From Escherichia phage vB_Eco_BCPEco_001: a DNA stretch of 64,000 bases. Both the position numbers and the translations under genes were made by a program. The notes under the pieces were generated by a model. It worked only from the letters and a program-made list of their open reading frames with translations. It made no database searches and had not been told where the DNA came from. Shown here piece after piece: positions 33,027 to 33,839 of the stretch. The stretch is from the sequence record PV295200.1; one strand, given 5' to 3'. Numbering within the stretch: the first letter of the stretch is position 1; the number at the start of each line of letters is the position of its first letter.

Positions 33027-33839
33027 TTATTCGACCTTCTTAAATTTGCAATTGTCAAAATGGTATCTTTTAGCGTGAGACTTATCCATGATTTTAGAGC
33101 AGTGCGGGCATTTTAATTTTTCTCTGCTATGAGATACACCCGTGATAACTTTGCATTTATCGCCGTGGTATTTTCCATAATTTCCTACATCACATATAAT
33201 TCCGCAATGCGGGCAATTTCTCTTTTCGACTTTTGCAAGACCCTTAGATAGTTTATTTAAATACTTTTCGTATTTTTGGGGGTCACTTTTAAGCTCAGAC
33301 CAAAAATCTTTCATCTGTTTAGAACATCTTTCTTTATATTCTAACATTTCGTTTTCTGATAACGATTCCAAATATTTCACTGAAGCTTTTCGAATATTTG
33401 CATTAACTTCTTTTCTCTTTTCATCTGTCCATAAAGATTTAGTTTTTTTAATGCCTTTTCCGGCTTTTTTAATTCGTTCCTGTTTTAAATTTGGTGATAG
33501 ATTCGCCCAAAACTTTTTAATGGTTTCTGATCTAATTTTAGATGTTTCCTCTTTAATCCATCCGTAATCTTTACTTACAATTCTCTGCTCTTTTGTACCC
33601 TTGGAGAATTTTATTAAGGCATAAGCCATTTCAGAATTTCGGTGTATTTTAAAAAGAAGCTCATGTGCAAAATAGTGTTCTCTTGCTGTCAGTAAAACCT
33701 TGTTTTCTCTAGAATCATCTCCTCCCATGGATTTTGGGACAATATGGTGTGATTCTGTATAATAATCTAATTTTTTCTTATTAAGACCTCTTTTAAGAGA
33801 TCTTTCTATAAGAGAGTCGTAAATTTTAGTATAATTCAT
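33027..33839 (-). CDS. HNH homing endonuclease (freestanding, Mob-like) with C-terminal Cys/His zinc-finger-like repeats
   Basis: HNH motif [34 protein letters not shown]; two CPHC...H..C motifs; start ATG overlaps gp13 stop (ATGA). Confidence 0.8.

Follow-up and report, generated by a model that had tools for sequence, protein, structure and literature searches.

We analyzed a 64,000-nt stretch of Escherichia phage vB_Eco_BCPEco_001 (record PV295200.1; hereafter the window), in which an open reading frame (ORF) of 270 amino acids, a putative HNH homing endonuclease, lies between the genes for the neck proteins gp13 (the head–tail adaptor) and gp14 (the head-closure protein). An initial annotation of this DNA had placed the ORF exactly between the two neck genes, with its start codon in the stop codon of gene 13 and its own stop codon against the start of gene 14, and the coordinates bear out each of these placements (Table 1). 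The boundaries of the inserted cassette are exact. The ATG of the ORF (33839–33837) shares its last two bases, TG, with the TGA stop codon of gene 13 (33838–33836), giving an ATGA overlap, and its TAA stop codon (33029–33027) is followed by a single base and then by the ATG of gene 14 (33025–33023). The ORF listing extends gene 14 upstream to a TTG at 33058; homology to T4 puts its true start at the ATG at 33025. That genes 13 and 14 are directly adjacent in T4, which the initial annotation had stated, also holds: T4 has no insert, and a single position separates the end of gene 13 (94553) from the start of gene 14 (94555). An AAGG/AGGT Shine–Dalgarno-like element ahead of gene 14 is supplied by the last codons of the endonuclease (AAGAAGGTCGAA), and the TAATATG that follows is the same in phages that have the ORF (carriers) and at empty sites.

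The encoded protein joins an N-terminal nuclease core to two C-terminal zinc knuckles, much as the initial annotation had read from its motifs: the HNH core that it quoted is present at residues 31–59, and the two zinc-finger-like motifs are both of the CCHC type. A profile search without an HNH match had been named there as a result that would speak against the assignment. Our searches returned a Pfam HNH_4 match above threshold (E 1.2e-5, 25.6 bits, cut-off 22 bits) and a match of the whole protein to PHROG 655, ‘homing endonuclease’ (E 1.8e-52), while NCBIfam gave no match. Invariant across 57 aligned homologues are H31, H32, N46, H55, and H59 in the core, as well as C244, C247, H260, and C264 of the second knuckle. 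The AlphaFold (AF2) model, which has a predicted local distance difference test (pLDDT) score of 89.9, shows an HNH core at residues ~25–66, five long helices at residues 90–203, and two small zinc knuckles. In the core, strands 29–32 and 47–50 and helix 52–66 form a beta-beta-alpha fold with pLDDT values above 90. The protein thus belongs to the HNH superfamily both by its motif of His, Asn, and His, recognized by a curated profile, and by its beta-hairpin/helix fold, and local structural matches of the core are found in Cas8-HNH, GVE2 HNH, and Gme HNH. A sequence search of the PDB and a whole-chain Foldseek search yielded only weak local HNH and zinc-finger matches, among which I-HmuI was absent.

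The helical region that follows the core is presumed to be a DNA-tracking module of the NUMOD3/STPR-like kind. Pfam NUMOD3 (PF07460) is present in many of the homologues and gave no match in the window protein at E ≤ 0.1; the middle region is probably a diverged relative of NUMOD3, and we do not class it as a member. Taken together, the three-part model and the domain searches therefore indicate an architecture of a nuclease head and an extended, modular DNA-binding tail. This is the design of I-HmuI and of the I-TevI-type homing enzymes.

Table 1. Coordinates of the ORF, its parts, and the flanking genes in the window
Feature	Position	Strand	Basis or remark
Probable Mob-type HNH homing endonuclease ORF, 270 aa	33027..33839 (incl. 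TAA stop)	(-)	ORF list, Pfam, PHROG, tblastn
HNH (beta-beta-alpha-metal) nuclease core, aa 23-60	33660..33773	(-)	Profile, alignment, local structural matches
Long helical repeat region, aa 90-203	33231..33572	(-)	
Zinc knuckle 1, C209-x2-C212-x12-H225-x3-C229	33153..33215	(-)	Specific to close subfamily
Zinc knuckle 2, C244-x2-C247-x12-H260-x3-C264	33048..33110	(-)	Invariant in 57 homologues
A7 homopolymer in ORF, site of 1-nt deletion	33443..33449	(-)	Comparison of copies
Recoded last 7 codons of gene 13 (GTG GGA GTG TTA GTT GGA TGA)	33836..33856	(-)	Includes ATGA overlap and GGGAG
Gene 14 translation initiation region rebuilt by insert, AAGAAGGTCGAA TAA T ATG	33023..33041	(-)	
Gene 13 (neck protein, head-tail adaptor), upstream host gene	33836..34765	(-)	
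Gene 14 (neck protein, head closure), downstream host gene	32255..33025	(-)	Pfam T4_neck-protein, E 8.5e-138

Translated searches (tblastn) connect the protein to the Mob endonucleases of T4. Residues 1–113 are 41–50% identical to T4 orf D (X01804), to annotated mobD and mobB, and to further Mob-type genes, one of which adjoins the topoisomerase large-subunit gene, and ~230 residues (1–230) align at ~31% with a homing endonuclease gene beside nrdA, which is the position of MobE. The ORF is of the Mob type both by this homology and by its freestanding occurrence at a site where close relatives lack it. It is 98–100% identical to ORFs that are already labeled ‘homing endonuclease’ in several GenBank records, including the RefSeq entry of T6. 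A literature search for a described endonuclease at the 13/14 site found none, and the site lies outside the coverage of the T4 mobile-element review. The ORF adds an ordinary, uncharacterized member to the well-known Mob family of T4.

T4 MobE has, like this ORF, an N-terminal HNH domain, stands free between two conserved genes, and occurs sporadically among the T-even phages. It is promoter-less, overlaps the upstream stop codon, and nicks one strand (PMC2790892, PMC2988022). The overlap of start and upstream stop reads UAAUGA in MobE and ATGA in this ORF. MobE sits between nrdA and nrdB, genes of nucleotide metabolism, whereas this ORF sits in the late structural operon of genes 13 and 14; as a further difference, no internal terminator was found in this ORF, and the second CCHC knuckle is extra in this ORF relative to MobE. 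The activity of MobE has been demonstrated (PMC2790892), whereas that of this ORF is predicted from sequence. T4 MobD, MobB, and MobA are likewise freestanding, promoter-less cassettes of one family (PMC2988022). Their C-terminal DNA-binding regions, however, are unrelated to that of this ORF, and their insertion sites are different. In I-HmuI and I-HmuII of the Bacillus phages SPO1 and SP82, an N-terminal HNH domain is joined to an extended modular DNA-binding tail that lies along a long asymmetric site, and both enzymes nick one strand. Unlike this ORF they are intron-encoded, and it has no significant sequence match or whole-chain structural match to them.

The distribution of the ORF is sporadic and recent. 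The segment spanning gene 13, the ORF, and gene 14 is 100% identical to that of Salmonella phage vB_Sen_BCPSen_003, and the other full-length matches listed, including T6, are 96.5–99% identical and all come from the T4-type genus Tequatrovirus. The full segment is present in 46 of 510 matching records; the remainder (~91%) match genes 13 and 14 without the insert. The tblastn search agrees, with 46 records at ≥95% protein identity and the next matches below 60%. Carriers span at least seven named Tequatrovirus species; T6 carries the ORF, and T2 and T4 do not. Among 65 diverse T4-like loci from IMG/VR, the gap between genes 13 and 14 is only a few bases in nearly all, and the ORF is present in one (L005); of the 64 T4-like loci in which both genes were placed, about 60 have the two side by side. 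Its carriage in so few records and the adjacency of the two genes in most loci rule out that the ORF is a conserved core gene at this position, which is what the initial annotation had named as the second result that would count against it.

More distant homologues (P0002–P0004), which are 52–57% identical, occur in three divergent T4-like lineages whose gp14 is 69–79% identical to that of the window; in each, the homologue lies directly upstream of gene 14. One of these homologues starts in an ATGA overlap and two start after a 9-nt spacer. The recurrence of these homologues at the same junction in lineages so divergent points to fidelity of this endonuclease lineage to the 13/14 site. When JGI metagenomes and IMG/VR were scanned by exact pattern for the carrier-type end of gene 13 (see below) and for the start of the ORF, chance or unrelated matches alone were added, namely L094 as well as L096 and L097, which hold a different HNH gene that shares the MNYTKIY start. 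One metagenomic T4-like contig with a 13/14 homologue also has a second Mob-like HNH ORF of 198 aa, located between genes 14 and 15 (L091:1621-2217).

To compare carriers with empty sites, we aligned 14 carrier and 16 empty Tequatrovirus loci. Among the carriers, the nucleotide diversity (pi) of the ORF is 0.0105, as compared with 0.048 for gene 13 and 0.032 for gene 14, so that the ORF is 3–4.5 times less diverse than its flanks. Synonymous diversity (pS) follows the same pattern, with 0.042 in the ORF versus 0.20 (gene 13) and 0.16 (gene 14), and the ratio of nonsynonymous to synonymous divergence (dN/dS) is ~0.09 across the intact copies, a sign of purifying selection. The low diversity and the low dN/dS together suggest that the common ancestor of the ORF copies is younger than that of the flanks and that the ORF has been maintained as a protein. 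In two pairs, T6 versus PST and G9062 versus ESCO58, a carrier and an empty phage have identical gene 14 sequences (0 of 770 differences in both). Linkage disequilibrium (LD) between single-nucleotide polymorphisms (SNPs) spanning a given point has its minimum exactly at the junction, where the mean r2 is 0.060, and rises smoothly to ~0.13 at ±600 nt; this trough, which was obtained from 30 sequences and from SNP pairs that are not independent of each other, suggests a recombination hotspot at the junction. Low diversity, identical flanks with and without the cassette, the number of carrier species, occupation of the same site elsewhere, and the LD trough are all indirect indicators of horizontal spread.

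The initial annotation had read the ORF as a freestanding homing endonuclease that invaded a conserved structural operon. Mob homology, low diversity, purifying selection, the carrier/empty pairs, and the homologues at the same junction all support this reading, and the ORF is probably a freestanding Mob-type (HNH) homing endonuclease cassette that is active or was so recently.

Carriers and empty sites also differ in the last codons of gene 13. All empty sites read CCA TTT GGA ATT TT(G/T) GTA GGT TAA T ATG, whereas all carriers read CC(A/G) GTG GGA GTG TTA GTT GG ATG A..., ending in ...AAG AAG GTC GAA TAA T ATG. In the last 21 nt of gene 13 this amounts to eight substitutions, by which PPFGILVG* becomes PPVGVLVG* (F304V and I306V). 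The recoded tail is present in 14/14 carriers and in 0/16 empty sites. Fixed differences between the two groups occur nowhere else: among 934 polymorphic columns within ±2.6 kb they are confined to the last 21 nt of gene 13, and differences in allele frequency between carriers and empty sites are zero beyond 25 nt on both sides. When a synthetic query that combines the empty site with the carrier tail was compared with the 882 matching records, no such allele was found, the best full-length match being 94.4%. A second lineage shows a similar picture. The metagenomic carrier L093, the endonuclease of which is 52% identical to that of the window, has 90–95% nucleotide identity to the empty Merlin-like loci L017, L018, and L021, and differs from all three at five positions within the final 13 nt of gene 13; each of these differences is synonymous, and the preceding 26 nt are unchanged. 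In the Tequatrovirus carriers, the recoding moreover creates a GGGAG 10 nt upstream of the endonuclease ATG. With this motif and the AGG-containing element before TAATATG, both translation starts are therefore rebuilt.

Homing endonucleases typically target sequences that encode constrained, conserved peptides. The recoded DNA encodes such a peptide, because residues 301–309 of gp13 constitute the portal-binding extension, which inserts between the clip helices of the portal (PMC12929629). On balance, we favor the final ~21 nt of gene 13, or the sequence directly beside them, as the location of the target. The guess of the initial annotation, according to which the endonuclease would cleave the 13/14 junction of relatives that lack it, appears to fit the recoded tail, and as a candidate target sequence we propose a stretch within or near CCATTTGGAATTTTGGTAGGTTAATATGGCT in the 13–14 region of T4 and T2. 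MobE, by comparison, nicks within the neighboring nrdB, its nick having been mapped at nt 122–126 of T2 nrdB (PMC2790892), whereas here the carrier-linked differences are found only within 21 nt of the insertion. The perfect linkage of the tail to the ORF and the synonymous cluster in the second lineage are consistent with a carrier allele that protects against cleavage; hitch-hiking could also explain them.

The main rival to this placement of the target likewise assumes a real Mob-type endonuclease but takes the tail to be leftover sequence of a more divergent T4-like donor phage, carried along at the first entry of the cassette into Tequatrovirus, and not an immunity determinant, in which case immunity would come from the splitting of the site by the insertion alone, or the target would be elsewhere. 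A tract of 21 nt with eight mismatches that touches a heterologous insert would indeed be hard for recombination to separate from it, and related tails are found in other genera, such as the gp13 end PPTGVLVG with its GGATGA overlap in the Karamvirus-like L008. Moreover, L091 and L093, which have closely related endonucleases, share the 9-nt spacer and an upstream CTC codon, as co-inherited flanks would. Yet the substitutions are confined to the last 13–21 nt in two independent lineages, in the Merlin-like one of which they are all synonymous and preceded by 26 unchanged nucleotides, and no other carrier-linked difference that could protect a distant target exists within ±2.6 kb. We regard a donor remnant as the less likely reading. 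In the Karamvirus-like loci L008–L012 (CC31/PG7-type) generally, gp13 has the ending seen in L008, with the GGATGA overlapping the next gene; this partly carrier-like tail may point to the lineage from which the cassette was donated.

Another explanation concerns the present state of the element, which could be stranded or decaying: after a past invasion it would no longer cut and would be kept only by its linkage to essential neck genes. In Shigella phage SHFML-26 and Escherichia phage vB_EcoM_F1 (loci L070 and L074), the same A7-to-A6 deletion shifts the frame and splits the ORF into two annotated fragments, and the copy in fPS-2 carries C216Y. No linkage to flanking SNPs remains, and T4 offers a precedent in I-TevIII, an endonuclease that is defunct and has nonetheless persisted (PMC2790892). 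The shared frameshift, however, is either real decay or a sequencing error of the kind that homopolymers invite, and the catalytic residues and zinc ligands are all intact in 12/14 copies. The dN/dS of the intact copies and a synonymous diversity 4–5 times below that of the flanks, which argues for a recent common ancestor and spread, also stand against decay, which we consider improbable. In Escherichia phage G9062 (L071), gene 14 contains a 55-bp perfect tandem duplication at the equivalent of window position ~32545, and the annotated neck protein is truncated; because gene 14 is essential, this duplication is probably an assembly artifact.

Co-option for a phage function, be it as a packaging aid like the terminase HNH of cos phages or in an attack on competing phages or host elements, is very improbable, since ~91% of close relatives, including T4, are fully viable without the ORF, the T4-type terminase has a nuclease of its own, and the similarity is to Mob homing endonucleases and not to the terminase-partner HNH families. 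The terminase HNH proteins of cos phages (e.g., GVE2 HNH, 5h0o) are conserved partners encoded beside the terminase, whereas this ORF is neither conserved nor adjacent, being three genes away from terminase genes 16 and 17, and it was rejected as a member of that group.

If the ORF is a Mob-type homing cassette with its target at the end of gene 13, it would act as follows. Inserted without a promoter between the two neck genes, it would be transcribed on the late 13–14 message, and its translation would be kept low by re-initiation at the ATGA, possibly aided by the GGGAG of the recoded tail. During mixed infection with an empty phage, the protein, presumably through its helical repeats and zinc knuckles, would recognize an extended asymmetric site located at the 13/14 junction or the 3' end of gene 13, and the HNH domain would nick one strand of this site or cut it, as MobE and MobA do. 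Recombination-dependent repair from the carrier template would then copy the ORF together with the recoded 21-nt tail. Carriers themselves would be immune, as the insertion splits the junction and the eight substitutions recode the adjacent 21 nt; on this proposal, the carrier-type tail GTGGGAGTGTTAGTTGGATGA would render T4 resistant. Since the cassette rebuilds both translation starts, gp13 and gp14 would still be made.

Scans of the region for transcription signals agree with such a mode of expression. The exact late-promoter consensus TATAAATA is absent on the coding strand between 41166 and 29080, and its one-mismatch variants occur at chance level (214 found, 207 expected). A terminator scan showed no terminator-like site on the coding strand in or beside the ORF, and a scan for sigma-70 promoters and terminators likewise gave matches at chance level. 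The ORF thus appears to lack a promoter of its own and to be read as a cassette on the 13–14 message, an arrangement also described for several further endonuclease genes of T4 (PMC2988022). Translational coupling to gene 13, put forward in the initial annotation, is suggested by the ATGA overlap and the precedent of MobE, for which the overlap of start and stop was proposed to limit translation through coupling (PMC2988022). A hairpin that sequesters the start, as in I-TevI, was considered and dropped, because the RNA fold of the start region is not significant (z = +1.04). Upstream, a strong GC hairpin, GGGGCC-GCAA-GGCCCC (window 34770-34790, minus strand), lies in the 31 nt that separate wac from gene 13; it is annotated as a terminator in one related record.

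Endonuclease genes of another kind occupy the 13/14 junction in four divergent T4-like phages (L030:3927-4562, L039:4000-4584, L067:355-969, and L060:4160-4933). The product of the gene in L039 has a SegE GIY-YIG domain, and those in L030, L067, and L060 have I-TevI DNA-binding or NUMOD3 motifs. In L060, a duplicate of the gene 14 start, about 33 codons long, is fused to the ORF, pointing to an insertion ~33 codons inside gene 14. Like the window ORF, these Seg-type genes lie between genes 13 and 14 or at their ends, are of similar size, and occur sporadically, but their catalytic family is unrelated. More tentatively than for the target itself, we propose that the mobile unit may extend beyond the ORF to include the recoded 21 nt of gene 13, which would act as an immunity determinant, and that the junction may be a recombination hotspot contested across T4-like genera by the unrelated Mob-HNH and Seg-GIY-YIG endonucleases.

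Modestly new in these results are the linked, recoded tail in two lineages, the changes at the portal end of gp13, the LD trough, and the presence of Seg/I-TevI-like genes at the same junction. Otherwise both the element and the genome that carries it are of an expected kind, and another freestanding HNH gene in a T-even phage will not surprise a specialist. If the proposal is true, the spread of a selfish cassette has rewritten F304V and I306V into the portal-binding extension of gp13 in about 9% of Tequatroviruses; as the tail encodes the part of gp13 that inserts in the portal clip, a selfish gene could thus impose amino-acid changes on an essential structural protein. The junction would then also offer a compact natural setting, within an essential late operon, for the study of target-site immunity and of competition among homing endonucleases. 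Intron-less homing has its classic model in the T-even phages, and to our knowledge targets have been mapped for only a few of the Seg and Mob enzymes. With the gene present in T6 and absent from T2 and T4, standard mixed-infection and nick-mapping set-ups are directly applicable, and the sequence data point to a short stretch as the candidate target, namely the final ~21 nt of gene 13 and the junction.

Elsewhere in the window, a likely Seg-type ORF near genes 5 and 6 (47571-48167, minus strand) has SegE GIY-YIG, NUMOD3, and I-TevI DNA-binding matches, and an ORF at 56.7 kb (56683-57348, plus strand) likely encodes a GIY-YIG homing endonuclease. A weak SegE-like match (20328-21029, plus strand) lies beside genes 23 and 24, in a segD-like position.
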